Below, piece after piece: positions 5,841 through 35,218 of a stretch of DNA of 35,218 nucleotides. Every line of letters starts with the position of its first letter. Position 1 is the stretch's first letter. The notes under the pieces are model-generated. The model did not search any database and was not told the origin of the DNA. It saw only the letters and a program-made list of their open reading frames with translations. This DNA is from Lysobacterales bacterium (lineage in GTDB: Bacteria > Pseudomonadota > Gammaproteobacteria > Xanthomonadales > S139-57): assembly GCA_026993285.1 (NCBI GenBank), contig JALWTZ010000433.1, positions 1 through 35,218 of the forward strand, given 5' to 3'. The position numbers and the translations under genes were made by a program.

Positions 5841-6950
5841 TCAGGGAGCGGGTTCCTCCACCACCCGCTTTTCCAGATAGGCCCGGCCCTGTTCCATGAT
5901 GCGCACAAAGGCCGCTTCATCCTGGCTGCGAATACTTCGCAACAGTTGTGCCAGCGCCTGTTCCAGCCCCTGCAGGGCCTCTTCCCGGTAATCGTTCAGC
6001 GTCTGGATTTCAAAGTAGAGATGGGGGTTTTCTCCCGCCACCCGGGAAGCCACCGCCAGTTGCTGGTCGAAAGTGGTACTGGACATGCGCGCCAGCTTGT
6101 CCGCCGACTCGCCGCTTTCGGCCAGGGTAGAAAAAAACAGGATGTTGATGGCATGGGAAATGCCCAGCACATAGGCAATCAGCCGGTCGTGCTCTTCCAG
6201 GCCCATGTCCACCTGCACCGCCATGGTGGAACGGAACAGTTCATGGGTGACGGCATTGGCCCGCTCACAACCCAGATCGATGAAAATCACATGCTTGCCG
6301 GAAAGCAGCTGGGCATCCGGGCCAAACATGGGGTGAATGGAACTGACCTGGCAGCCAGCCGCCTTCAAGGCCAGCAGGCCCTCGCGCACCGGGCTTTTCA
6401 GCGAAGCCAGATCGAAGACCACGCCTGCCGGCTTGCGTTCGGCCAGTTGCAGCAAAATTTCCCCGCTGGCCTTCAGCGGCGCGGCCACCACGATCAGGTC
6501 GTGGTCCAGCTCCAGTGCCTGCCAGTCACTTGCTACCCCTGCCTGGCCCGCTCCGGCCGGGTCGGCCACCTCAACCTGATAACCCTGGTTACCGAGAAAG
6601 GCAGCAAACCAGCGCCCCAGCTTGCCCAGGCCGCCGATCACCAGCGCCCGCCGGCCACTGCCACTGCCCTGAGCCATGACCATTTCCTGTTCCTGCCGGG
6701 TGAGCGAGGAGCGAATCAACAGCTGCATCAACTGCTCGGCCACCTGCGGCGGCAGGCCGAAACGTTCCGCGTTGGCGCGGGCGGTGTCGATGACCACCTT
6801 CTCCCGCTGATAATCCCGCGTGCCCCGCCCCTGGCGTATCTTGCTCTGCCCGATCTCCCCCACAATACGCTGCCGCTCGGCCGCCAGCCGGATCAACTCG
6901 GTATCCAGCCCGGTCAAACGCGCACGCAGTTTTTCCAGTTCTTCTTGCAT
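5841..6950 (-). CDS. tyrA: bifunctional chorismate mutase / prephenate dehydrogenase (T-protein)
   Basis: 369 aa. The N-terminal AroQ chorismate mutase helix pattern (LRARLTGLDTELIRLAAERQRIV) is followed by a Rossmann GGLGKLG and the HPMFGP motif, co-linear with E. coli TyrA. Confidence 0.88.
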   Translation of the reverse strand: MQEELEKLRARLTGLDTELIRLAAERQRIVGEIGQSKIRQGRGTRDYQREKVVIDTARANAERFGLPPQVAEQLMQLLIRSSLTRQEQEMVMAQGSGSGRRALVIGGLGKLGRWFAAFLGNQGYQVEVADPAGAGQAGVASDWQALELDHDLIVVAAPLKASGEILLQLAERKPAGVVFDLASLKSPVREGLLALKAAGCQVSSIHPMFGPDAQLLSGKHVIFIDLGCERANAVTHELFRSTMAVQVDMGLEEHDRLIAYVLGISHAINILFFSTLAESGESADKLARMSSTTFDQQLAVASRVAGENPHLYFEIQTLNDYREEALQGLEQALAQLLRSIRSQDEAAFVRIMEQGRAYLEKRVVEEPAP

Positions 6951-7195
6951 GAGATGACATCACCCTTGGCTCTGAAACCAACAGAGTGTAGTGCATCCGT
7001 CGAGTGCCTCAATATGCAGTTGTCGATAGCAAGCCCATAGGGCTCTTCAGGAGCAAATGCAAAAAAATTACACTTCTGCACTTTTATATATCTATAGATA
7101 AAACAAACAGTTATGGTGCAACTTGTGATCGACATCTCTTTTCCAGGATCTCCATACTTTTATGATCGCGAGGAATTTGCCAAGGAAAAGCTCCG

Positions 7196-8944
7196 ATGTC
7201 TCTTTTCGCACGCCATGTTCTCAACCGCCTGAGCTTTGGACCCACAACCAGCAGCATGAATGCATTTCAGAATGCAGGTAGTACCGATAGCCAGCGGTTG
7301 CAAAATTGGCTCAACGACCAACTGAACTGGCAAGCGGTCAGTGACACCAGTTTTCAGAATCAGCTCAATCAACATTCCTACCAAACGTTGAACTGGCCTC
7401 TTGCCACTGCCTGGAACAACCTGCGAACCAACCGTGCCGATGGCGTGGATTACCGTATGGCCAATCGGGAAGCCGTGCGTTTCAAGCTGGCCAGGGCCGT
7501 GCACAGCAATCGACAGTTGCTGGAAGTGTTGGCGGATTTCTGGCACGACCATTTTTCCCTTAATGGCTGGGATGGCTACGCCATCTACACCCTGGTCAGT
7601 TGGGACCGGGATGTGATTCGCCCGGACAATAACCCGAATCGTACTGGCCATATCTTTGGCAATTTCCGCAAGATGCTGGAACTGTCTAGCCAGCACCCGG
7701 CCATGCTCTACTACCTGGACAATTACATCAACACCAACAACAGCCCCAATGAGAACTACGCTAGGGAAATCATTGAGCTGCATACCCTGGGTGCCATGCA
7801 CTATGTCAGCCTGGGTAACCCAAATTCCATTCCCCGCATCACGGTCAATCTGCCCTGGGGCCCCGGCGGCAGTGATATCGCCGTGGACATCGCGGAAAAC
7901 TATGTGGATGACGATATCTACGCCGCCATGCGCATGCTCACCGGCTGGAAGGTCAAGGACAACGAGAACAACGAATCTTCCAACTTTGAAAATACTGGCG
8001 AGTGGTACTTCTACGAAACCTGGCACGACAAATTTGAAAAAACCATTCTGGGCTATCACTGGCTCAGTTTCGAACCCGCGCCGGCAGATATCTACCAGTT
8101 TCTTGACCTGATCGGTTATCACCCCGGTACGGCCCTGCATATTGCCAGCAAACTGTGCCGCCGTTTTGTATCTGAAAGCGCTGCGGACCTGGCCGGTATC
8201 CAGCCTGGAGACCTGTTGCAGACACCGGCACCCAACGAACCACTGGTTTTGCGCGTGGCCAGAACCTTCTACAGCAACCGCTACGCAGACGATCAACTCA
8301 GCCAGACCTACCGTACCTTGTTCCTTTCACCGGAATTCATGGATATGAACAATGCCGGAGGAAAACTGAAACGCCCGTTCGAGCTGGTTGCCTCAACCAT
8401 GCGCGCGAGCATGAGTGATTACTTCCCCCAATATGTACCTGGGAGTATCTACGACGAATCCTATCGAATTCTGGAAGACAATCTGTATTACGCCGGCAAT
8501 CGTCCCTTCAACTGGGCAGCGCCCAACGGCTACCCTGACAAAAACGACTATTGGGAAAATCCGGTGACCCTGATCAAGGCCTGGCGGACTATTGATTACA
8601 TGTGCGATCAGAACTCGAACGGCAATTACAATGTATTACCCATCGTTCAGGTTACACAACAGAATCTACAAGCGGCAGATCAGACACCGGAGAAAATAGT
8701 TGCATTCTGGCTGAAACAGTTGCTGCAGTACGAACCTACCGGTGGCTGGATTGGCACCAGCCTGCATACCAAGCTACTCTGGTTCATGACCCACAGACCC
8801 GACTCCAACGTTGACCCCTCCGTCTGGCCTGCGGATTACCCCATCCCCGACATCAGCAGCAACAACTCTCCTCACTACTGGCATGAACGCCTGCGTGGCC
8901 TGTTCAAACTCATTGTGGCCAGTCCGGAATTCATGGTTCGCTAA
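7196..8944 (+). CDS. DUF1800 domain-containing protein
   Basis: 582 aa. HVLNRLSFGP near the N-terminus, FWHDHFS and ELHTLG motifs are typical of DUF1800. AAGGAAAAG Shine-Dalgarno is present. It is followed 11 nt later by its usual DUF1501 partner. Confidence 0.8.
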   Translation: MSLFARHVLNRLSFGPTTSSMNAFQNAGSTDSQRLQNWLNDQLNWQAVSDTSFQNQLNQHSYQTLNWPLATAWNNLRTNRADGVDYRMANREAVRFKLARAVHSNRQLLEVLADFWHDHFSLNGWDGYAIYTLVSWDRDVIRPDNNPNRTGHIFGNFRKMLELSSQHPAMLYYLDNYINTNNSPNENYAREIIELHTLGAMHYVSLGNPNSIPRITVNLPWGPGGSDIAVDIAENYVDDDIYAAMRMLTGWKVKDNENNESSNFENTGEWYFYETWHDKFEKTILGYHWLSFEPAPADIYQFLDLIGYHPGTALHIASKLCRRFVSESAADLAGIQPGDLLQTPAPNEPLVLRVARTFYSNRYADDQLSQTYRTLFLSPEFMDMNNAGGKLKRPFELVASTMRASMSDYFPQYVPGSIYDESYRILEDNLYYAGNRPFNWAAPNGYPDKNDYWENPVTLIKAWRTIDYMCDQNSNGNYNVLPIVQVTQQNLQAADQTPEKIVAFWLKQLLQYEPTGGWIGTSLHTKLLWFMTHRPDSNVDPSVWPADYPIPDISSNNSPHYWHERLRGLFKLIVASPEFMVR

Positions 8945-8955
8945 GGAGGCCCACA

Positions 8956-10245
8956 ATGAGCAGAATCACAAGACGCGCATTTCTCAAAGGTACCAGCTTT
9001 GGTTTACTCCTGCCTTCCATGGCCGGTCAACTGTGCTTCAGCCTGGGTTCAGCCCGTGCTGCAGCCAAGGGGGTGGGTGGCCAGAAAACCCTGGTCTATC
9101 TGTTTTTCCGTGGCGGCATGGACACCCTGAGCTGGCTGGTACCCATCTCCGGTCAGAATCGCGTGGAATATGAAAGCAAGCGACCCAATATTCGCGTACC
9201 ACTCACCGGAAACGATGCGGCAGTTCCATTAGACAATGCCTTTGGCCTCAATGCCGGCGCCAGCGCCCTGACCAATCTCTACAACATGGGCAGTGGGGCC
9301 TTTATTCAGGCCTGCGGCATGCCTTCCGGAACGGGTTCACGCAGCCATTTCGAGTCCATGCGTTTGTTTGAAACCGGTACCATTGGCGGCAACAATCAGA
9401 TCACCGGGTGGCTGGCCCGTTATCTGGATACGTCCCCTTCCCTTTCTCCCAGCGCCATCTTCCCCAGCCTCACGCCCGGCGTATTGCCGGATGCACTCAA
9501 GGGCAGTACCCAATCCGTGGCCGTGGACGACCCGTCCAATTTTCACCCCAACAGCGGGCGTTATGGTGATGAATATCTGACTACCCTGAACACACTTTAC
9601 GATGGAAACACCTCCCTGGATGCAACCGTGCGCACGGCAGTGGATACGGTCAATCAACTGGAAAACAGCAACCTGACGGTTCCTGCCAGCTACCCCAATA
9701 CCTCACTGGCTCAAGATCTGGGCCTGGTTGCCCAGGTCATCAAGGGCAACTATGGCCTGGAGGTAGCCACCGTGGATTTTGGAGGCTGGGATACCCACGA
9801 AAACCAGGGCAACAACGGTGCAGGCTACTTCCGCGACCGAATTCGTACCGTCTCCGAGGCGATTGACGCCTTTTTTGCCGATTTGGCTGCCAGTGGTTTG
9901 ATGAATGATGTGGTGCTGGTTACTCAAACCGATTTTGGCCGCCGGGTACGGGAAAACGGTAACCGGGGTACTGACCATGGTACCGGTCAAGTTATGTTCG
10001 TAGCCGGTGGTGCCGTACAAGGTGGACAAATACTGGGCACTTTCCCCGGCATTGCCGACGAACAGCTCTATTTGAATGCCGATCTGGCCGCAACAACGGA
10101 CTACCGCACGGTACTCAGTGACATCGTGGTCAATTTCATGGGCAACCCCAACATCCAAACCATATTCCCGGGCTATACCGGCAGAGACGGCTTGGGGTTG
10201 TTTCCCACCGAGCGCATCTTCAGCGACGAGTTCGAGTCGCTCTAA
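8956..10245 (+). CDS. DUF1501 domain-containing protein (sulfatase/alkaline-phosphatase-like fold, Tat signal)
   Basis: 429 aa. It has a twin-arginine signal (MSRITRRAFLKGTSFGLL) and GGWDTHENQ and GTDHGTG motifs. A strong TAAGGAGG Shine-Dalgarno lies 7 nt upstream. Confidence 0.85.
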   Translation: MSRITRRAFLKGTSFGLLLPSMAGQLCFSLGSARAAAKGVGGQKTLVYLFFRGGMDTLSWLVPISGQNRVEYESKRPNIRVPLTGNDAAVPLDNAFGLNAGASALTNLYNMGSGAFIQACGMPSGTGSRSHFESMRLFETGTIGGNNQITGWLARYLDTSPSLSPSAIFPSLTPGVLPDALKGSTQSVAVDDPSNFHPNSGRYGDEYLTTLNTLYDGNTSLDATVRTAVDTVNQLENSNLTVPASYPNTSLAQDLGLVAQVIKGNYGLEVATVDFGGWDTHENQGNNGAGYFRDRIRTVSEAIDAFFADLAASGLMNDVVLVTQTDFGRRVRENGNRGTDHGTGQVMFVAGGAVQGGQILGTFPGIADEQLYLNADLAATTDYRTVLSDIVVNFMGNPNIQTIFPGYTGRDGLGLFPTERIFSDEFESL

Positions 10246-10460
10246 CCCTCTACCCTCCCCTTTCCAGCAATCCCGGAACACAAGTGATGTTCCGGGCCTG
10301 GCCTGATCTTGCCCAGAAACCGCAAGCTCCACCAGGGCTTTTCCCCAGTCAACCATGTAGCAACACCACAATCCTGTTCGTACGATCTGCAGATCCATCT
10401 AATGCAAGCCATTGTTTTTTCTTTAATTTCAACATATTTGTATTTTTTCCAATTTATGTT

Positions 10461-10489
10461 TTGCATTTTTACAAAACAGATTGTATAGT
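10461..10489 (+). promoter_or_regulatory. sigma70-like promoter for the EAL/HTH/repeat-protein operon
   Basis: TTGCAT (10461-10466), a 17-nt spacer, then TATAGT (10484-10489), inside a very A/T-rich tract about 30 nt upstream of the ATG at 10518. Confidence 0.4.
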
Positions 10490-10517
10490 TAAAGAAAACA
10501 CTGATGAGAACCTAGGC

Positions 10518-11279
10518 ATGAAATCCTGGCAACGCCCACCAAGAATAGAGGGGAGACAGCTCACATTCGGGCTTGCCAGCCAGCGCATACTGCAACTTCG
10601 CTCAGGTCTGCCTGGAAGAAAGGAAATGCTCTCGCGTCCTCAGGATGGCAACATGCCACTGGATGCCTTCCGCTTTTTCCAGGACATCAGAAAAAGGCGA
10701 ATGGAAGTATGTACCGACCTGCATGTGGCCCATTGCATACAGAAGGAAATCCAGCCCAAGCATGTCAGGCAGATTCATCACATCAATGTCTCTGCGGTCA
10801 CCCTGGTGAACCCCCGTTTCCGAGAATTTATCCAACATCTCGTTGAAGATACGGCCTGGCAGGCTGAACAGCTCTGCTGGGAAATCACCGAGATGGAACC
10901 CTCACCCGATCTCCACGGCATTGTGAAAATCAGCGAATGGTTGCTGAAACAAGGCTTTCATGTAGCCCTGGACGACTATGAGCCCGGAAACCCCTATGAA
11001 CCCTTGCTGCGTTTCCCACTGCCCTGGCTGGTCAAACTGGATCAGTCCCTGCAGAAAAAGCCGGAGACCATGGCAAGGGTCATCGACCTGCTCCACCAGA
11101 AAAACCTGCCCATCGTGGCAGAAGGTGTGGAAAACCTGCAGCAGATGGAATTCTGCATTCAGCATGATGTGGAGTATGTCCAAGGCTACTACATCGAAAA
11201 GCCCCAACGACTAACCCCCGATGCCCCTGTAACCCTGAACAATCTCAATAACCCGGAACCTGACGGAGTACAACCGTGA
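10518..11279 (+). CDS. stand-alone EAL-domain protein (putative c-di-GMP phosphodiesterase)
   Basis: The track ORF 10284..11279 is trimmed to ATG 10518 because the upstream part crosses the A/T-rich promoter region. EAL-domain landmarks appear in order: EMLSR (the EALxR position), P..F, INVS, EITE, DDYEPG (the DDFGTG position), VKLD, AEGVE and VQGYY..KP. A start at ATG 10626 would delete the EML glutamate. Confidence 0.72.
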   Translation: MKSWQRPPRIEGRQLTFGLASQRILQLRSGLPGRKEMLSRPQDGNMPLDAFRFFQDIRKRRMEVCTDLHVAHCIQKEIQPKHVRQIHHINVSAVTLVNPRFREFIQHLVEDTAWQAEQLCWEITEMEPSPDLHGIVKISEWLLKQGFHVALDDYEPGNPYEPLLRFPLPWLVKLDQSLQKKPETMARVIDLLHQKNLPIVAEGVENLQQMEFCIQHDVEYVQGYYIEKPQRLTPDAPVTLNNLNNPEPDGVQP

Positions 11280-12130
11280 ATCAAAATCAACAACCCTTGC
11301 AACAGGATCAAACGCTGGTCGACGGCGTACTGAACATGTTGCGACGAATGGTGCGGCCCATCGTGCGCATATGCCTGCGACAAGGTGTGCGCTTCGACAC
11401 CCTGAGCCGGATCATTGAAGAGGAAATGGTTCGTGCATCAGCACATGACCCCGCACTCAGAACCCCTGGCCATGCACAGAATGTATCCCGCATCGCCTTC
11501 CAGACCGGCCTTTCACGAAATGCGATCAAGAAAGCGCTGGAACACATTGAGGCCAATCAAGATCTGCTGGACAAGGAGCGCTGGAGCATCGAATCGCGCG
11601 TACTGCTCATGTGGTCGGAAGACCCGATTTTTCAGGATGAGGAAGGGCGCCCAAAAACCCTGGAAATACGGGGTGGGCCACAATCCTTCCAGGGCCTGGT
11701 TCAGCGGATTGGCAAGGGAACCAGCTACGGACCCGTGCTGGAAAGCCTGGAAGCTGCGGGTTGTGTGCAGAGAGACGGAAAGAAAGTCACTTTTATAAGC
11801 TCTATATTTGTGCCCAGTAATGTATCAAATAAATCCAGGCTGGAAGTAGCCAATCGAGCAGCTCAATTTTACTCATATTATCTTTCAACTCTGGATGAAA
11901 ACCTCAAATCTGATGGAGATTGGGCATATCAGCAATCGATGTATACACGATATTGTCCAAAGGAAAAAGTACCAGAGTTTTTAGCTATGGTAAGAGATAA
12001 ACTAGATCAATATATGGATGACTTCGAACCTGAATTAAAAAAATTCGAGGAACTGCCAATAGAAAAATCACTTGTTGGCATCGGCATGTTTGCCTTCACA
12101 GATGATAATAGCGAGGATACTGACTCATGA
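11276..12130 (+). CDS. hypothetical protein with putative helix-turn-helix / winged-helix segments
   Basis: 284 aa. The GTG start overlaps the EAL stop (GTGA at 11276-11279); an alternative ATG is at 11336. NVSRIAFQTGLSRNAIKKAL looks like an HTH, and GPVLESLEAAGCVQRDGKKVTF like a winged-helix wing. I cannot name a family with confidence. The C-terminal third is much more A/T-rich. Confidence 0.6.
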   Translation: MNQNQQPLQQDQTLVDGVLNMLRRMVRPIVRICLRQGVRFDTLSRIIEEEMVRASAHDPALRTPGHAQNVSRIAFQTGLSRNAIKKALEHIEANQDLLDKERWSIESRVLLMWSEDPIFQDEEGRPKTLEIRGGPQSFQGLVQRIGKGTSYGPVLESLEAAGCVQRDGKKVTFISSIFVPSNVSNKSRLEVANRAAQFYSYYLSTLDENLKSDGDWAYQQSMYTRYCPKEKVPEFLAMVRDKLDQYMDDFEPELKKFEELPIEKSLVGIGMFAFTDDNSEDTDS

Positions 12131-12978
12131 GCAACCAAACAACCAATCAAATATTGACCTACCACCATACACGCATTGAAAAAGAAGGTACCGGAAAAGG
12201 TCCATCCAAAACAAAAATCAACAGAAATTTACTGGCTACCTCTTTGTTACTTGCACTTACAGCTGGAGCAGCGGCATCCGATAAGATGCTCAATAACTTT
12301 ATTGCATCACAGTCGGATAACACCCTGCAAATTTCCTGGCATACCGAAACCATTTTTGGAGAGAATCTACATATCATTGGCCAGAAAAACCTCATGGATG
12401 GGGATGCCCCCATGGATCTTTATTCTATCAACCTGACAGAGGGTTACCCAACACTGGAAAAAATCGGAACACTCGCCATGGGCGCTCGCTGTGGCATGCA
12501 AAAAGTAGAACTTACGACCAGTGCAAACTGGTCCAAATTAATTGCCTTTGACTGGATAGACGAATCCTATTTCAAAACTCCTGAACGTGAAGGTACCGGC
12601 ACACCCGAACGCGAAGGCACTGGCACACCCGAACGCGAAGGCACTGGCACACCCGAACGCGAAGGCACTGGCACACCCGAACGCGAAGGCACTGGCACAC
12701 CCGAACGCGAAGGTACTGGCACTCCCGAACGCGAAGGTACTGGCACTCCCGAACGCGAAGGTACTGGCACTCCCGAACGTGAAGGCACTGGCACTCCCGA
12801 ACGTGAAGGTACTGGCACACCCGAACGTGAAGGTACTGGTGCCCCCGAACGCGAAGGTACCGGAAGCCCCGAGTGGGAAGGCACTGGTGGCATTGATCCG
12901 ATCATGGATAACGATTCCATCGAAGTGCTGATCAACCTGCAATGCGGCATGCAGAAAGGTGAGCCCTTTGGTGGATAA
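12127..12978 (+). CDS. secreted protein with 13 tandem TPEREGTG octapeptide repeats
   Basis: 283 aa. The ATG overlaps the upstream stop (ATGA at 12127-12130). It has a signal-peptide-like segment (NLLATSLLLALTAGAAASD), a domain of about 100 aa, 13 repeats of 8 aa, and a 29-aa tail. A CGMQK motif occurs on each side of the repeats. Confidence 0.7.
   Translation: MSNQTTNQILTYHHTRIEKEGTGKGPSKTKINRNLLATSLLLALTAGAAASDKMLNNFIASQSDNTLQISWHTETIFGENLHIIGQKNLMDGDAPMDLYSINLTEGYPTLEKIGTLAMGARCGMQKVELTTSANWSKLIAFDWIDESYFKTPEREGTGTPEREGTGTPEREGTGTPEREGTGTPEREGTGTPEREGTGTPEREGTGTPEREGTGTPEREGTGTPEREGTGTPEREGTGAPEREGTGSPEWEGTGGIDPIMDNDSIEVLINLQCGMQKGEPFGG
12577..12888 (+). repeat. 13 x 24-bp in-frame tandem repeat (ACN CCC GAA CGY GAA GGY ACY GGC)
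   Basis: Counted directly: 13 contiguous 24-nt units. Units 1-11 encode an identical TPEREGTG and differ only at third codon positions. Unit 12 encodes APEREGTG and unit 13 SPEWEGTG. Confidence 0.97.
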
Positions 12979-13013
12979 TCCATAGGCTGGTCTCAAACGG
13001 CCAATACCCGATC

Positions 13014-13040
13014 AACGCCCCGGTTTGTTGCCGGGGCGTT
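13014..13040. terminator. bidirectional stem-loop terminator between convergent genes
   Basis: AACGCCCCGG (13014-13023), a 7-nt loop, then CCGGGGCGTT (13031-13040): a perfect 10-bp stem. It lies between the repeat-protein stop (12978) and the argH stop (13046). Confidence 0.7.
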
Positions 13041-13045
13041 GTCAT

Positions 13046-14341
13046 TTATGCCGTTTGCAAGACCCGCAGGCGTGCCTGGAGCTGATCCAGTTCCAGGGCC
13101 GCGCAGGCACCGGGCGAGACCCGGGCTGCCAGGCTCTGCTCGGGTGTCCGGTCCTTCAGCTGGTCATATTCCCGCACCACCTGCCGGTAGGCTTCCCGGA
13201 ACGGTACCTGTTCCGCGGCCAGTTCCACCGCCCGGTCGGTGGCGTACATCTCCACCGAAATGGCTTTTTTGCAGTTTTCCGCATCGAAGACCACATGCTG
13301 GAGGAAATCCGGCACCAGTTGCATCAGCTGTTGCGCGTGCTGCAGGGCATGCAGTACCGGCCCCTTGCCGAACTGCAGATCCCGCTGGTAGCCGCTGGGC
13401 AGGGAAAGCAGGCTCAGCAGTTCCACTTGGGCACCCTGCAGGCGCGCGGCACTGGCGCGCATCAGTTCGACGAAGTCCGGATTGCGCTTGTTGGGCATGA
13501 TGGACGAACCGGTGGTGTAGCGGTCCGGCAGGCGTACCAGGTCGAATTCCGTGGTGGTGAACAGGCTGATGTCCCAGGCCAGACGGCGCAGGTCCAGCAG
13601 GGGCTGCAGCCAGGCCATCAGTGCCTGCAATTCAAACTTGCCCCGGCTGTTTTGGGTGTAGATGGGGTTGACCTGCATGCGCTCGAAGCCCAGGGTTTCA
13701 GTAGTGTGGGCACGGTCCAGCGGCAGATTGACCCCGTAGCCGGCGGCCGTGCCCAGCGGGTTGGCGTTGAGCCATTGCCAGGTCTGTTGCGCCAGCCGCG
13801 CATTGTCGATGAAGGCTTCGGCAAAACCGGCAAACCACATGCCCACCGATGACACCACGGCCCGTTGCAGATGGGTGTAGCCGGGCATGGGCTGGGTGCG
13901 GGTTTCTTCCGCCCGCCGCAGGCAGATTTCAGCCACCTCGGTACAGTGGTCTTGCAGCTGTTGCAGGCTGTCGCGCAGATACAGGCGCATGGCCACCAGT
14001 ACCTGATCATTGCGGCTGCGGCCGGCATGCACCTTCTTGCCCAGATCCCCCAGCCGTTCCGTCAGCCAGAACTCGATGGCCGAGTGCATGTCCTCAAAAC
14101 GCGCATCCAGCTGCAACTCACCCTGTTCGAAGGCCTTGCCAATGGCCTGCAGTTGTTCTTCCAGCCTGGCCGCCTCCTCTGTAGTGAGCAGGCCGATACG
14201 GCCCAGGCCCTGTACATGGGCGATGGAGGCCTGAATGTCGTAGGGAAAGAGGATGCGGTCCAGCACCACATCCTCACCGGCCATGAAGGCCATGATGGCC
14301 CGGTCCACATCCACCTCGCCCTTCTGCCAGATCATGCTCAC
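13046..14341 (-). CDS. argH: argininosuccinate lyase
   Basis: 431 aa with the fumarate-lyase signature context and GRSRNDQV. The GTG start at 14341 overlaps the argC stop (GTGA), with GGAGG 7 nt upstream. An alternative ATG is at 14335. Confidence 0.92.
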   Translation of the reverse strand: MSMIWQKGEVDVDRAIMAFMAGEDVVLDRILFPYDIQASIAHVQGLGRIGLLTTEEAARLEEQLQAIGKAFEQGELQLDARFEDMHSAIEFWLTERLGDLGKKVHAGRSRNDQVLVAMRLYLRDSLQQLQDHCTEVAEICLRRAEETRTQPMPGYTHLQRAVVSSVGMWFAGFAEAFIDNARLAQQTWQWLNANPLGTAAGYGVNLPLDRAHTTETLGFERMQVNPIYTQNSRGKFELQALMAWLQPLLDLRRLAWDISLFTTTEFDLVRLPDRYTTGSSIMPNKRNPDFVELMRASAARLQGAQVELLSLLSLPSGYQRDLQFGKGPVLHALQHAQQLMQLVPDFLQHVVFDAENCKKAISVEMYATDRAVELAAEQVPFREAYRQVVREYDQLKDRTPEQSLAARVSPGACAALELDQLQARLRVLQTA

Positions 14342-22400: not shown

Positions 22401-22590
22401 GCCGCGGCTTTCCGGCCGATGCCGGGAAAACGCAGCCATTATGCATGAATTTGCAGGTTGCTGAAATCTGCTGCCATCGCCCAATCACGGGACCGGGTGC
22501 CCAGTGACACCGACCAGAGTCCGTGTCGAGGAGGGTCGTTACCGTGGGGCCGTGGCAGGTCAACCCAACCCGTTACAACGAGGAAATACC

Positions 22591-23562
22591 ATGCCCAAGA
22601 TCACCATGCGTGAGATGCTGGAGGCTGGCGTTCATTTTGGACACCAGACCCGTTTCTGGAACCCGAAGATGGCCGAGTACATCTACGGTGCCCGCAACAA
22701 GATTCACATCATCAACCTGGAAAAGACCCTGCCCCTGTTCGAAGAGGCGCTGAACTTCATCAGCTCTCTGGCCGCCCGTCGTGGCACCATCATGTTCGTG
22801 GGCACCAAGCGTTCTGCCCGCACTGCCATCAGTGAAGAAGCCCAGCGCGCCAAGTCCCCCTATGTTTCCCACCGCTGGCTCGGTGGCATGCTCACCAACT
22901 TCCGCACCGTGCGCCAGTCGGTTCGCCGCCTGATGGATCTGGAAAAGATGGAAGAAGACGGCAGCTTTGACAAGCTGGTGAAAAAGGAAGTGCTGACCCT
23001 GCGGCGGGAAAAAGACAAGCTGGAGCGTTCCCTTGGCGGTATCAAGGACATGAAGAAGCTCCCGGACGCACTGTTTGTCATCGACATCGGGCATGAATCC
23101 ATTGCCCTGAAAGAAGCCAAGAAACTGGGCATCCCGGTCATAGGCATTGTGGATACCAATGCTGACCCGGACCTGGTTGATTACCTGATCCCCGGCAACG
23201 ACGATGCCATCCGCGCCAACCGTCTCTATGCCCGCGCCGTGGCCGATGCCATTCTGGAAGGCCGTCTCTCCGCCCCCACCGCTGGTGGCTCGGAAGAAGA
23301 GCTGGTTGAAGTGGATGAGGAGGGCAACCCCATCGTCAAGGAAGAAACCGCTGAAGCCAAGCCCAAGAAGAAAGCGGCCGCGAAAAAGAAAACCGCAGCC
23401 AAGAAGACCGCTGCCAAAAAGACCACTGCCAAGAAAACCGCAAGCAAGAAAACCGCCAAGAAGGCGGCTGCAAAAACCGAAGAAGCACCCAAGGCAGAGG
23501 ATGCTGCCCAGGCTGAAGCAGAACAGCCTGCTGCAGACGCGGAAGAAGGCAAGGCCGAATAA
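22591..23562 (+). CDS. rpsB: 30S ribosomal protein S2 with Lys/Ala-rich C-terminal extension
   Basis: The track ORF is trimmed to ATG 22591 ([27 protein letters not shown]), with AGGAA Shine-Dalgarno 5 nt upstream. It is 323 aa. The last ~95 aa are an acidic linker, then [40 protein letters not shown], then an acidic tail. Confidence 0.95.
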
Positions 23563-31832: not shown

Positions 31833-34800
31833 TCACGGCCCTTCAAAACTGTCACTGAAAATAGTCTCATCCAGTTGAACAGTAATCACAAAGGTCTCCA
31901 CAGCCGTGCTGTCAATGCCATCGGAAAGACTCACGCTGACCGTGGCTTGCCCTGTCTGGCCGGGGATAGTGGCAAAACTCAGCACGCCACTGGCATCGAT
32001 GGCCGGCTGGGTGGCAAACAGGGCGTTGTTGTCATTGCTGACCGTGAATGTCAGCGTCTGTGAAGACTCATTGGCTGGCCCCACACTGAGATTGCTGGCC
32101 CAGGCGGCACTGTAACTGCCCTGGGTATCGCTGACTTGCACATCACCACCTGCGGTAAAGCTCGGCGGATCGTTGACCGAATTGATGGTGAGATTCACCA
32201 CCAGCGTATCGGTTCCACCGTTGCCATCACTGACCTGTACGGTAAAGCTGTCCGAGCCGTTGTAGTCAGCGTTGGGGGTGTAGCTGACATTGCCACTGGC
32301 ATCCACACCAGCCGTACCACGGTTGGCCGTTGTGCTGATACTCCAGCTCAATGGGTCGTTATCGATATCGCTGGCCAGCAGCTGTGCCAGAGAGAAGGCA
32401 GTCGGGCTACCGTCTTCATCCATGCTCACGGCTGTCTGACCATCATCGGTGCCATCCGGGTCGGTGAGAACGGGGGCATCGTTAACAGGGTCGATGGTGA
32501 CATTGACCACCAGCGTATCGGTTCCACCGTTGCCATCACTAACCTGTACGGTAAAGCTGTCCGTACCGTTGTAGTTGGCATTGGGGGCGTAGCCGACATT
32601 GCCGCTGGCATCCACGGAAGCGCTGCCATTGCTGGCGGCGGCACTGATACTCCAGCTCAAGGGGTCGCTGTCCGCATCAGTGGCGGTCAGTTGTGCCAGA
32701 GAGAATGCCGTCGGGTTGCCGTCTTCATCCATGGTCACGGCCGTCTGGCCATCATCGGTGCCATCCGGGTCGGTAATCACCGGCGCACTGTTGCTGGCAC
32801 TGGAAAGCGGTGCCTTCCAGGCGCCGCGACCATGGGTAAAGGCAAAGAGCACCGGCTGGCCGGAGATGATCTCCATATCCAGTGATTCCACCACCACATT
32901 GGCAAAGCCGGTATTTTCCTGCGCCCAGTTGGTCCCACCGTTTACCGAGACAAACATGCCCAGATCGGTGGCCAGCAACAGGCGGTTGCTGTTGTTGGGG
33001 TCCACCATCAGGTCATGGGCGGGAATATCCGGCAAGTCGTTGCTGATGTCTGTCCAGTTGACGCCGCCATTGCTGGTCTTGAACACATGGCCACAGCCAA
33101 AGGCGGACGAAGTGGCGTAGGCCACCTGATCACTGCCCGGGGCGAAACGCACCGAGGAGATGTAGCAACCCGCTTCCGGCGTGGCCACAGGCCAGTCAGT
33201 GGTTGCATCCGCACTCAGGGCCGCAGTCTGGTAGCGTATCTGCCCGTCTGTAAAACCTGCCAGTACCGCATTGGAATTGATGGGTGAAACCCCAATGGCA
33301 CTGAGGGAAGCGCCATTGTTGGTGCTGGCCTGCACCCAGCTGCCCGCCGCATCCGTGGTGCGCCACAGGTAATTGCCGCCAATCCAGAGGTTGTTGGCAT
33401 TGCCCGGATCCATGGTATGTGGGGTGATAAACAGAAAGCCAGTGTCCAGTGTGGTGTTGATGCCCGTTATGGCATCCGCCCAATTACTGCCGCCATCGCT
33501 GGATTTCTGCAAACTTAAACCTGTGTATGAGGCGTACAGAATCTGCATATTATTGGGATCGATAGAGACATAGCCACCATCACCACCAAGAATTTGCGAC
33601 CATAGATTTGGGCCATCAAGGTCATTACCCCGCAGGGTGCCATTGTCCTGGGCACCGGCAAAGTATTGTATGGAATTCGGGTAAGCCTGACCGTGGTAGA
33701 ACTGGGTAGCACCATAGCTGTTGTTCAGGTTGACCCAACCGATGCTTTCAATCCACTGTACATCTGAATAAAACGAAGGGCAGATTTCCGATGTGAGTGT
33801 TGTCCCGGCAGCAGTCGCATTATTAGCACGGTAAATGCCACCATCATTAGCCACATACATTTTGGTGTTGGTGACCCCATCATAACCGGGGTCAAACACA
33901 ATCACATGCTGGTCAGCATGGGGAGAATCGGAATTGATGCCCCCATCCCTTGGGTTAATCCACCAGTAAGAGGCAATCATCCAGTTCTGCCCGGCATCAT
34001 CGGATACCATCAAATCAACCCCACCAACCCAAATACGATTGGGATTGACCGGATCCACGGCAATCACATTATCGTACCAGCCCTGGTTGAAATAGCCCTG
34101 ACTCCAGCAAAGCAGTGCAGCCGGGTTGGTTAACTGCAAAGTATTGAGTTGATTGGCATTGTTGTTGTCCACCTGTGTAGACCAATTCGTCCCACCATCT
34201 ATCGTTCTGTAAACTGCCTGCAATCCATCTGTGTATGTTGCGTTGCTGCTGCCATCATGGGAGGCCAACACATAAAGAATATTCTGATTGGAAGGCGCCA
34301 AGGCCATGGAAGAACGACCCATTCCAGGATCATTCAACACTGCTTCCCAGGATGGGATAAACGCCTCTGCATCGTAAGAACGCCAGATCATGTGGTCATT
34401 GCGGCTGCCATCGGTGGAGAAGCAGCTGGCAAAGAGCACATCCTGGTTATTCAGATCCGTGCGCAACTGCAATTGGGTGCAACGACCAATACGGGTATTG
34501 GTGCCATCATCCAGATACATGGGTATCCAGTTTGCTCCACCATCGGTACTGCGAAACAGACCGCTGTTGGTGGCCGCATAGATACGGTTGCTGTTCCAGG
34601 CCGAGATTTTCAGGTCATTGACATAGTAGAAGCTGGAACCCGTGGTGGAAGCCAGTTGTGTCCAGGTCGCACCTCCATCGGTGGTCTTGAAGATGCCCGC
34701 GCCACGGACAGCATCCACGTTATAAAACCCCTCACCGGTGCCGGCATAAAGTATTTGGTTGTTGTTGGGGTCCATCACCAGTGAACTGACAGCCAGGTTG

Positions 34801-35218
34801 CCCATCAGGTCATCCAGTGGCTGCCAGTTGGCTCCCCCATCGGTGGTTTTCCACACACCACCGGCTACCGCCGCGGCATACATCGTGTTGCTATTGTTCG
34901 GGTCAATCACCAGCTGCCGGGTGCGGCCGCCGATATTGCCGGGGCCGAGAAAGGTCCAGTTGACAAAGGCCGCCCGGCTACCCGGCTCCACAAACTGGCC
35001 CAACAGGCTGGAATACAGTGGCAACTGATCGGCCTGTACACGGGCCTGCTGGTACAGCGCATAATCCAGCGTGGTCTCACCCCGGGGTGCGCGCTTGTAG
35101 ATAAAGAAATTACTGGCTTCCTGCGGCTGGTCGGCACGTTCCTCTGCCTGTTTGGCTGGTGGTTGGATGTTAGAGGTTTGCTGGCAGCCGGCCAGGGCTA
35201 CGGCCAGCACCACAGGAA
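31833..35218 (-). CDS. large surface lipoprotein: Asp-box (BNR/sortilin-Vps10-like) beta-propeller region + tandem cadherin-like/Ig-like domains (N-terminus beyond window edge)
   Basis: More than 1126 aa, with the frame open to the window end. A lipobox is present (LAVALAGC). There are nine S/T-x-D-G-G-x-x-W type Asp boxes (e.g. KTTDGGANW, KTTDGGATW, RSTDGGANW, KSSDGGSNW). Two 103-aa repeats follow (DxDxDPLSWS...Y.P...YNG.DSFTVQVSDGNGGTD...VNDAP), then a further Ig-like domain. Confidence 0.85.
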   Translation of the reverse strand, partial: PVVLAVALAGCQQTSNIQPPAKQAEERADQPQEASNFFIYKRAPRGETTLDYALYQQARVQADQLPLYSSLLGQFVEPGSRAAFVNWTFLGPGNIGGRTRQLVIDPNNSNTMYAAAVAGGVWKTTDGGANWQPLDDLMGNLAVSSLVMDPNNNQILYAGTGEGFYNVDAVRGAGIFKTTDGGATWTQLASTTGSSFYYVNDLKISAWNSNRIYAATNSGLFRSTDGGANWIPMYLDDGTNTRIGRCTQLQLRTDLNNQDVLFASCFSTDGSRNDHMIWRSYDAEAFIPSWEAVLNDPGMGRSSMALAPSNQNILYVLASHDGSSNATYTDGLQAVYRTIDGGTNWSTQVDNNNANQLNTLQLTNPAALLCWSQGYFNQGWYDNVIAVDPVNPNRIWVGGVDLMVSDDAGQNWMIASYWWINPRDGGINSDSPHADQHVIVFDPGYDGVTNTKMYVANDGGIYRANNATAAGTTLTSEICPSFYSDVQWIESIGWVNLNNSYGATQFYHGQAYPNSIQYFAGAQDNGTLRGNDLDGPNLWSQILGGDGGYVSIDPNNMQILYASYTGLSLQKSSDGGSNWADAITGINTTLDTGFLFITPHTMDPGNANNLWIGGNYLWRTTDAAGSWVQASTNNGASLSAIGVSPINSNAVLAGFTDGQIRYQTAALSADATTDWPVATPEAGCYISSVRFAPGSDQVAYATSSAFGCGHVFKTSNGGVNWTDISNDLPDIPAHDLMVDPNNSNRLLLATDLGMFVSVNGGTNWAQENTGFANVVVESLDMEIISGQPVLFAFTHGRGAWKAPLSSASNSAPVITDPDGTDDGQTAVTMDEDGNPTAFSLAQLTATDADSDPLSWSISAAASNGSASVDASGNVGYAPNANYNGTDSFTVQVSDGNGGTDTLVVNVTIDPVNDAPVLTDPDGTDDGQTAVSMDEDGSPTAFSLAQLLASDIDNDPLSWSISTTANRGTAGVDASGNVSYTPNADYNGSDSFTVQVSDGNGGTDTLVVNLTINSVNDPPSFTAGGDVQVSDTQGSYSAAWASNLSVGPANESSQTLTFTVSNDNNALFATQPAIDASGVLSFATIPGQTGQATVSVSLSDGIDSTAVETFVITVQLDETIFSDSFEGP
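32169..32786 (-). repeat. 2 x 309-bp tandem duplication encoding two 103-aa cadherin-like domains
   Basis: The period was measured from matching strings (CACCAGCGTATCGGTTCCACCGTTGCCATCACT at about 32200 and about 32509, an offset of 309 nt). Each copy ends with the VND codons (32169-32177 and 32478-32486). The copies are highly similar at the DNA level. Confidence 0.9.

Follow-up and report, generated by a model that had tools for sequence, protein, structure and literature searches.

A 35,218-nt stretch of DNA from a Lysobacterales bacterium (GenBank assembly GCA_026993285.1, contig JALWTZ010000433.1, positions 1 to 35,218, hereafter the window) contains three genes on the + strand that are chained by overlapping stop and start codons, GTGA at 11276-11279 and ATGA at 12127-12130, exactly at the coordinates given in an earlier note made from the letters of this DNA. 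Their products are a stand-alone EAL domain protein, a protein of the DUF6502 family, and an exported protein in which a short peptide motif is repeated many times. The conserved unit at this and related loci is a DUF6502 gene together with an exported protein that carries the motif close to its N-terminus, to which the clade of the window has added the EAL gene. What such a unit might do is suggested by a likeness to the cyanobacterial regulator HetR and its peptide partner PatX, which has to be weighed against three other explanations. The operon consists of the following features, in order of position.

10457-10478, no strand assigned: palindrome TGTTTTG-N8-CAAAACA (TGTTTTGCATTTTTACAAAACA), with perfect 7-bp arms and an 8-bp spacer, overlapping the -35 element
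10461-10489, + strand: sigma-70-like promoter TTGCAT-N17-TATAGT, read from the sequence
10518-11279, + strand: gene 1, ATG to TGA, 253 amino acids (aa), stand-alone EAL domain protein
11276-12130, + strand: gene 2, GTG to TGA, 284 aa, DUF6502 protein
12127-12978, + strand: gene 3, ATG to TAA, 283 aa, exported motif-repeat protein
12175-12195, + strand: motif IEKEGTG (aa 17-23 of gene 3), preceding the signal peptide's hydrophobic core
12229-12276, + strand: hydrophobic core of the signal peptide, LLATSLLLALTAGAAA, 16 residues, read from the sequence
12577-12888, + strand: 13 tandem 24-bp units encoding xPE[RW]EGTG (aa 151-254 of gene 3), from Tandem Repeats Finder and a reading of the protein
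13013-13041, + strand: intrinsic-terminator-like hairpin with a 12-pair stem (9 G-C) and a 5-nt loop

Gene 2 had been described as a protein with no assignable family, but it matches the DUF6502 profile (PF20112) at 71.9 bits against a cut-off of 27 bits, and all 80 of its aligned relatives match the same family. A word-indexed search with gene 2 returned only 3 close relatives and a profile of 80 sequences added little; an exhaustive profile search was used, and it gave 2,129 clusters of relatives at E<=1e-3. A genome collection scanned with a single protein gave one locus. Only two of these clusters reach E<=1e-30, and the window's subfamily is therefore rare within what is a large family. 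Our literature search found DUF6502 mentioned in no paper, and DUF5666, the domain that characterizes its most frequent partners, mentioned in passing only.

Gene 3 has no Pfam or NCBIfam family in profile scans, and it contains neither a DUF5666 (PF18914) domain nor a lipobox cysteine. Its sequence runs from an N-terminal extension through a basic stretch and the hydrophobic core to a folded-looking middle of ~100 residues, the 13 repeats, and a conserved tail of 30 residues. The basic n-region ahead of the core reads KGPSKTKINRN, a likely AXA cleavage site (AAA, then S) falls right before Ser51, and the same n-h-c layout with an AXA site was seen by inspection in all partners of the clade, so that gene 3 is predicted, again by inspection, to have a Sec-type signal peptide. 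Homologues occupy the equivalent position in three related loci (L001, L002, and L003), and residues I17, E18, K19, G21, and G23, all within the motif ahead of the core, are among the few positions invariant in the four proteins. Two cysteines, Cys122 and Cys272, sit in similar CGMQK contexts.

The C-terminal array repeats a version of this same motif. The earlier note counted 13 TPEREGTG repeats, and the number of units stands, but only 11 of them read TPEREGTG, the others being one APEREGTG and one SPEWEGTG; Tandem Repeats Finder delimits a 24-bp unit of 11.6 copies with 94% matches at 12583-12860. Among the 11 identical peptides, synonymous changes are found at 5 of the 8 codons, which means that conservation acts on the peptide and not on the DNA. 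Copy number varies among relatives, from 4 in L002 to at least 10 in L001 and 13 in the window. The description of the repeats as a disordered, highly charged region does not hold up, since the array is an amplified short motif, of the form E-x-x-G-T-G in the window's clade and I-x-G-[TS]-G in most of the family, that is also present once in the N-terminal extension. The RG[ST]GR sequence that HetR recognizes was not found in gene 3, which has 14 copies of the different, related E-x-x-G-T-G motif instead.

The earlier note had proposed a search for co-occurrence of the three genes beyond the window, and such co-occurrence was found: counting the window, the trio stands in the same gene order in eight loci, the others being L001, L002, L003, L004, L005, L007, and L145. 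These loci span at least six genomic contexts, with L001 and L002 sharing the DUF1800/DUF1501 neighbors of the window and the surroundings of L003, L004, L005, L007, and L145 unrelated to it, and the identity of the regulator across them falls to ~27%. Coupling of all three genes through their stop and start codons recurs in L001, L002, L003, and L005, in support of the claim that they form one unit, and the genes are near-coupled in L004, L007, and L145. The third protein carries a related motif in every one of the trio loci, with E-x-x-G-T-G as the common core, and the arrangement of its copies in six of them, relative to the core of the signal peptide, is as follows.

L002: three copies of IEKEGTG ahead of the signal-peptide core; four of SPEWEGTG later
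L003: three copies of IEK[NSD]GSG ahead of the core; then the contig ends
L004: ESDGTD ahead of the core; three to four copies of ESVNDGTGGST later
L005: GIEKNGTG and IEKSGLG ahead of the core; none noted later
L007: four copies of IVQETGTG ahead of the core; ten of KVVDAGTG later
L145: three copies of PEQGGTG ahead of the core; three of KSESGGTG later, the last at the very C-terminus

In L006, which lacks an EAL gene, a convergent neighbor follows the same plan, with four copies of KVEHAGTDS before the signal peptide and seven of QENGGTSG near the C-terminus.

To see the family more broadly, metagenome contigs were scanned with a DNA pattern for the conserved W..DP.F.D..G.P..L, which gave 120 loci, ~99 of them with a true DUF6502 gene; a looser DNA pattern applied to viral contigs gave 13 matches, none of which had a DUF6502 gene. 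An adjacent EAL gene was found in none of the ~99 metagenomic loci, one of which has an EAL gene 600 bp upstream. Of the c-di-GMP-linked (cyclic di-GMP-linked) module that the earlier note had proposed, the recurrence of the trio is thus upheld, but the EAL gene proves to be an accessory of a small clade and the core to be DUF6502 with the motif protein. When the neighboring open reading frames (ORFs) of the 99 loci were clustered, a single recurrent partner family emerged, present in 56 loci and lying directly downstream on the same strand in 46 of these 56, often with a 4-bp overlap. Its members are lipoproteins with 2-5 DUF5666 domains, and they carry G-I-x-G-[TS]-G ~8-25 residues past the lipobox cysteine. 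A search of the first 90 residues for the pattern [IV]x[GR][TS]G found it in 36 of 61 downstream partners versus 21 of 1,068 other ORFs (2%).

The motif is not confined to DUF5666 proteins. Downstream of the DUF6502 gene of L136 (2361-3575) lies a gene for a DUF4382 lipoprotein with GGIGGSG right after its lipobox, which shows that the motif can be carried by partner proteins that otherwise differ; it is present too in the small, unlike partners of L004, L005, L006, L007, and L145. Two copies of the motif are found in L033 and L110, and related units are tandemly amplified in several lineages, as AIVGGDSR x13 in L043, SIQGSN x35 in L126, GQAGSDKLVS x10 in L137, and DAIIGGDK x7 in L072. Amplification of the motif arose independently in several lineages. 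The pair in the window thus resembles the DUF6502-DUF5666 pairs in its PF20112 regulator, its gene order and coupling, and its exported partner with a Gly-Thr/Ser-Gly motif near the N-terminus, and differs from them in that the motif of gene 3 stands ahead of the signal-peptide core, 13 repeats follow near the C-terminus, and an EAL gene comes first.

Some loci depart from a single regulator gene. Two or three DUF6502 genes lie in tandem or close together in L041, L043, L080, L084, L111, L120, L137, L139, and L143, and in L120 each copy is followed by a DUF5666 lipoprotein gene of its own. The protein P0043 (387 aa) has a DUF6502 part followed by a signal-peptide-like hydrophobic segment and a Gly-rich tail, and is either a fusion of regulator and partner or a read-through in gene calling. 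P0005 (398 aa) consists of two DUF6502-like halves.

HetR, the heterocyst master regulator, and the RGSGR-type peptides that act on it are the textbook case of activator-inhibitor patterning in bacteria, and the comparison is brought in here by the predicted structure of gene 2. An AlphaFold2 model built with 80 relatives has a mean pLDDT (predicted local distance difference test) of 85 and a pTM (predicted template modeling score) of 0.73, and it is divided into a helical N-terminal unit, in which a helix-turn-helix (HTH) is clear at 70-92, a middle, winged-helix-like segment at 138-173, and a C-terminal part with two long helices. Conserved features include Asn209, and the protein has a C-terminal G-x-G-x-Y-Y-F-E strand. 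The HTH-like and winged-helix-like segments that had been noticed in the sequence of gene 2 are in this way supported, and the model is that of a predicted DNA-binding protein. When the fold was searched with Foldseek against the PDB, as the earlier note had suggested, the top four matches were all HetR, the best of them 4hri_A with E=5.3e-4 and probability 1.00 over 304 aligned columns; the next fold family, CRP/FNR winged helices, begins at E=0.11 and covers ~120 columns only. The model of P0008, a DUF6502 relative 29% identical to gene 2, has a pLDDT of 88, and its top four PDB matches are again HetR (E=5.3e-4 to 4.9e-3, 264-325 columns; next match at E=0.078). Over both models the match probabilities for HetR are 0.84-1.00, and the best match to anything else has E>=0.078.

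The fold of HetR, built from HTH, flap, and hood domains, has been described as unique, and PatS is bound by the hood (PMC7476756). DUF6502 proteins resemble it in their length of ~285-300 aa and in the predicted order of their parts, an HTH unit at the N-terminus followed by a middle domain and, at the C-terminus, a helical domain, and alignment with hhalign is colinear between DUF6502 116-231 and HetR 137-268, the flap and hood (P=0.016 and P=0.006). We take a HetR-like fold for DUF6502 to be probable, though not proven. The DNA binding of HetR is blocked by ERGSGR (PatS-6) and by HRGTGR from PatX, a hexapeptide that binds HetR (PMC12756182). PatX carries a Sec signal peptide and needs to be exported, and the hexapeptide is cut from it by PatP, a peptidase of the periplasm; a PatX without its signal peptide does not interact with HetR, and the patX-hetR module has been reported only in filamentous cyanobacteria (PMC12756182). 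The partner in the window likewise has a predicted Sec signal peptide and a short Gly-Ser/Thr-Gly motif, and, as with HetR, an inverted-repeat DNA site is the candidate target of the DUF6502 protein.

These likenesses lead us to a tentative reading, to which we would give somewhat less than an even chance, that the operon is a HetR/PatX-like module of regulator and peptide motif that in this clade has a c-di-GMP phosphodiesterase under its control. The anatomy of the operon, the family memberships, the recurrence of the trio and of the pair, the modular and amplified motif, the conserved palindrome, and the predicted fold match are shown, whereas we infer that the regulator binds DNA and the peptide, that the peptide is released, and that the EAL protein is active as a phosphodiesterase. 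A wider version, in which DUF6502 proteins are distant relatives of HetR and form, with their motif partners, a widespread proteobacterial signaling system of the HetR/PatX type, gene 3 being a multi-copy precursor that has a further copy of the ligand on its signal peptide and the EAL protein the link to c-di-GMP, seems to us possible but doubtful. The module may work like HetR/PatX, and on this analysis we do not file DUF6502 as a member of the HetR family.

Several observations weigh against the HetR/PatX-like reading. The TM-scores (template modeling scores) of the HetR matches are low, 0.25-0.40, with root-mean-square deviations of 9-13 A, and the match could in part come from a layout, not specific to HetR, in which an HTH and a winged helix are combined with long helices. 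None of the 80 DUF6502 members matches the HetR families PF03574 (Peptidase_S48) or PF18460 (HetR_C), even at E<=10, and HetR itself matches just these two in a Pfam scan; membership of DUF6502 in either is thus not detectable. The hhalign probability for DUF6502 and HetR is only 3-6%, obtained with a HetR profile that is shallow, its retrieved homologues all being at least 86% identical. The motif of the DUF6502 partners, E-x-x-G-T-G or I-x-G-[TS]-G, has no flanking arginines, unlike the RG[ST]GR of HetR. The partner gene adjoins the DUF6502 gene and is coupled to it in translation, a linkage that two Nostoc genomes lack for hetR. We had considered a patX gene beside hetR as a parallel to this adjacency and dropped it, since no ORF with RG[ST]GR was found within 10 kb of hetR in these two genomes. 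The partners differ from PatX also in being proteins of 160-660 aa, often lipoproteins, rather than small peptide precursors; gene 3, with 283 aa and 14 motif copies, is not the small precursor with a single terminal RG[ST]GR of the PatX type, and the many copies, the proteobacterial host, and the attached EAL gene set the window further apart from HetR/PatX. Conservation of the motif is partly common descent, because most partners are homologous DUF5666 proteins. Most of the family has the motif past the lipobox cysteine, in a part of a large lipoprotein that faces the periplasm, so that a cytoplasmic regulator could meet it only while the protein is not yet exported or once it has been processed and taken up again, and neither a peptidase nor an importer was found as a conserved neighbor among the clustered neighbors of the 99 loci. 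Where there is room downstream, about a third of the DUF6502 genes lack an obvious partner.

Another explanation is that DUF6502 is an ordinary local regulator, a transcription factor that controls the neighboring gene for a secreted or lipid-anchored surface protein, and that the likeness to HetR is superficial. The Gly-Thr-Gly motif would then never touch the regulator and would have an extracytoplasmic role, for example as a flexible tether past the lipobox, as the target of an enzyme that processes or modifies the protein, or as a linker that binds ions. The HTH and winged helix are clear in both models, the winged helices of CRP, FNR, and MarR are the next fold matches, the TM-scores to HetR stay below 0.5, sequence homology to HetR is not demonstrated, and most partners have the motif in a Gly-rich linker right after the lipobox. 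An ordinary pair of this kind would leave unexplained, however, why the same short motif is kept in partners that are not homologous and why the two genes are so frequently translationally coupled. It must also contend with two models, of proteins only 29% identical, that both match HetR over their full length, and with the motif copies that in the window's clade lie on the side of the signal peptide facing the cytoplasm and so can have no extracytoplasmic role until it is cleaved. We consider this explanation possible, if rather unlikely.

If the HetR/PatX-like reading is correct, the DUF6502 protein would bind the palindrome TGTTTTG-N8-CAAAACA over the -35 element and control its own operon, and a motif peptide supplied by gene 3 would set its activity, in parallel to HetR with the PatS, HetN, and PatX peptides. 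Signal peptides are degraded by membrane proteases, and one source of the peptide could be the cytoplasm-facing N-terminal extension with its IEKEGTG, freed when the signal peptide is cleaved and degraded. A second could be the 13 C-terminal copies, which might serve as a multi-copy precursor after export, proteolysis, and re-uptake. With the EAL phosphodiesterase as the first gene of the regulated operon, the output of such a switch would be a change in the level of c-di-GMP, which would be tied in this way to the state of the exported protein.

Some features of this scheme have counterparts among signaling peptides that are exported, processed, and re-imported. The RRNPP systems place a peptide gene with its cytoplasmic receptor-regulator, the enterococcal pheromones are cut from the signal peptides of lipoproteins, and yeast alpha-factor is made from a multi-copy precursor; the window resembles them in that a putative peptide is encoded beside the regulator that would be its cytoplasmic receptor, in that this peptide may derive from a signal peptide, and in the tandem copies within one precursor. 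A further likeness is limited to L145, the only locus in which genes for an oligopeptide-type ABC (ATP-binding cassette) transporter adjoin the trio. DUF6502 differs from the RRNPP regulators in that it is not a tetratricopeptide repeat protein, and conserved processing sites or a conserved importer were not found. The L145 transporter genes, of the oligopeptide/dipeptide type (L145:345-5442, in the GC-rich genome GCA_035444205.1), lie directly upstream of the trio and encode an OppC_N permease and an ATPase with oligo_HPY. They might be a peptide-uptake component, and as such would fit the uptake step, or might be a coincidence, this being a single case.

The place of the motif in the protein allows another explanation, in which no diffusible peptide is needed. 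DUF6502 could be a sensor in secretion feedback, binding the motif on the partner's unexported precursor in the cytoplasm, so reporting how well the partner is exported, and adjusting the transcription of the operon, with the EAL gene in this clade, accordingly. The motif is always within about the first 60 residues, either before the signal-peptide core or 8-25 residues past the lipobox, translational coupling would bring both proteins together at synthesis, and a conserved peptidase or importer gene was not found nearby in the 99 loci. A feedback sensor has no role for the C-terminal arrays, with 13 copies in the window, 10 in L007, 7 in L006, and 3 in L145, and the HetR system offers no precedent for it, since PatX lacking its signal peptide does not interact with HetR (PMC12756182). 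On balance we think secretion feedback improbable.

The EAL protein, through which the module would have its output, is a probable c-di-GMP phosphodiesterase or receptor. Gene 1 matches the EAL domain PF00563 at 78.9 bits against a 31.3-bit cut-off, over residues 24-229, and E36, R40, N90, E122, E125, D152, D153, K173, E202, E205, and Q222 are invariant in the seven EAL members of the clade. These 11 residues correspond to those that serve catalysis or bind metal or substrate in solved EAL structures (MorA, YahA, and Lmo0131), which a profile of the seven members matches at E values down to 9e-35, so that the catalytic landmarks that had been read from gene 1 are all present and the family is confirmed by the profile scan. 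Loop 6 is atypical, however, reading DDYEPGNPYEP in the window, L001, L002, and L003 as against the canonical DDFGTGYSS; the farther members of the clade have the canonical type, DDFG[TE]G in L004, L005, and L007 and DDFGAG in L145. In the EAL enzymes that have been studied, the canonical loop 6 (DFG[TA]GYSS) is required for activity, and an atypical one often goes with a loss of catalysis. Gene 1 probably binds c-di-GMP, and its hydrolysis of c-di-GMP is likely but uncertain.

A further explanation is that the EAL protein is mainly a c-di-GMP sensor, forming a c-di-GMP-responsive complex with the DUF6502 protein, while gene 3 is cargo under their control, a surface protein whose repeats vary in number by slippage. 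Single-domain EAL proteins are known to work with transcription regulators, as YdiV, which is catalytically degenerate, does with FlhDC, and in PdeL an HTH is fused to the EAL domain. The window resembles these systems in the genetic link between an EAL protein of one domain and a predicted DNA-binding protein, a link suggestive of transcription control tied to c-di-GMP; it differs from YdiV in that gene 1 keeps all the catalytic residues and DUF6502 is a different regulator family. A complex would be in keeping with the GTGA overlap of the EAL and DUF6502 genes in several lineages, with the atypical loop 6 in the window and its three closest loci (L001, L002, and L003), and with repeat numbers that differ among close relatives. 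Retention of all the catalytic residues points instead to an enzyme rather than a degenerate receptor, and almost all DUF6502 loci are without an EAL gene while the motif protein stays, from which it follows that the EAL protein cannot be the core. We give such a complex only a small chance, and it is compatible with the HetR/PatX-like reading rather than exclusive of it; that reading and the three others are not all mutually exclusive.

If the resemblance to HetR is true, it opens the way to direct tests of how the HetR system evolved, and in the wider version, with DUF6502 proteins as distant relatives of HetR, the cyanobacterial patterning module would be a specialized branch of an older, broader system. 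A true resemblance would also provide a working hypothesis for DUF6502 and its DUF5666-type partners, as well as a peptide-sensing route into c-di-GMP signaling. Even if the link to HetR fails, the conserved pair, with its modular and repeatedly amplified motif, constitutes an uncharacterized system.

The DNA upstream of gene 1 has a bearing on how the operon could be controlled. The promoter TTGCAT-N17-TATAGT that had been proposed is present at 10461-10489, within a block kept in L001 and L002, and a promoter scan matches it in the adjacent register (TTTGCA-18-TATAGT, 9 of 12 matches). Promoter-like matches in the region are not enriched relative to shuffled sequence (2 found, 2.7 expected), and the promoter owes its credibility to conservation, L001 and L002 having the block unchanged although the other intergenic DNA has diverged. 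The palindrome at 10457-10478 is single in the 35-kb window even with 2 mismatches allowed, and it is identical in L001 and L002 despite the divergence of the intergenic DNA around it. L003 keeps its arms (TGTTTTGCGTTTACACAAAACA) upstream of the EAL gene, in a different genomic context and with a regulator that is 59% identical, and among the 143 loci fetched the palindrome occurs only in L001-L003, always upstream of the EAL gene. We regard the palindrome, from its sequence and distribution, as a candidate operator of the DUF6502 protein, and its position over the -35 element suggests autorepression. L145 has a different inverted repeat, perfect over 11 bp, upstream of promoter-like elements. 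The repeat array of gene 3 was also considered as an operator at the level of DNA and rejected, its DNA being unrelated to the palindrome and its units varying synonymously.

At the other end of the operon, the terminator stem that had been said to close it is borne out as the 12-pair hairpin at 13013-13041. It has a weak T-tract (TCATTTAT) and lies between gene 3 and a convergent argH-like gene, so that it is common to both. Upstream, a 9-bp perfect inverted repeat, CCCGGAACA-N7-TGTTCCGGG, stands at 10272-10296 right after the stop codon of the DUF1501 gene, and L001 has the same. This repeat is probably the terminator of the upstream DUF1800/DUF1501 pair, in which case the EAL operon would be a separate transcription unit. 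The DUF1800/DUF1501 pair itself (7196-10245) shares a low-GC stretch with the operon, ~6500-13000, where GC is 0.45-0.57 versus 0.60-0.64 on either side. It adjoins the operon in L001 and L002 as well and not in L003, L004, L005, L007, or L145, and it is therefore a neighbor rather than a part of the module. Chromosomal housekeeping genes flank the region, namely uvrA, a chorismate mutase/prephenate dehydrogenase gene, the argH-like gene, and an argC-like gene read from its translation. The window contains no tRNA genes, and a c-di-GMP riboswitch or other RNA element was not found in it by Rfam match, nor within 10100-13200 at E<=1.

Two other genes of the window have internal repeats of their own. 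The ribosomal protein S2 gene at 22504-23562 encodes 352 aa, ~100 more than usual, and the extra length is a C-terminal Lys/Ala-rich tail made of 15-18-bp tandem repeats (23363-23456). On the - strand at 31833-35213, a large gene for a cadherin-like/Big_9 surface protein runs past the end of the window; within it, at 32184-32774, 309 bp are duplicated in tandem with 84% identity.

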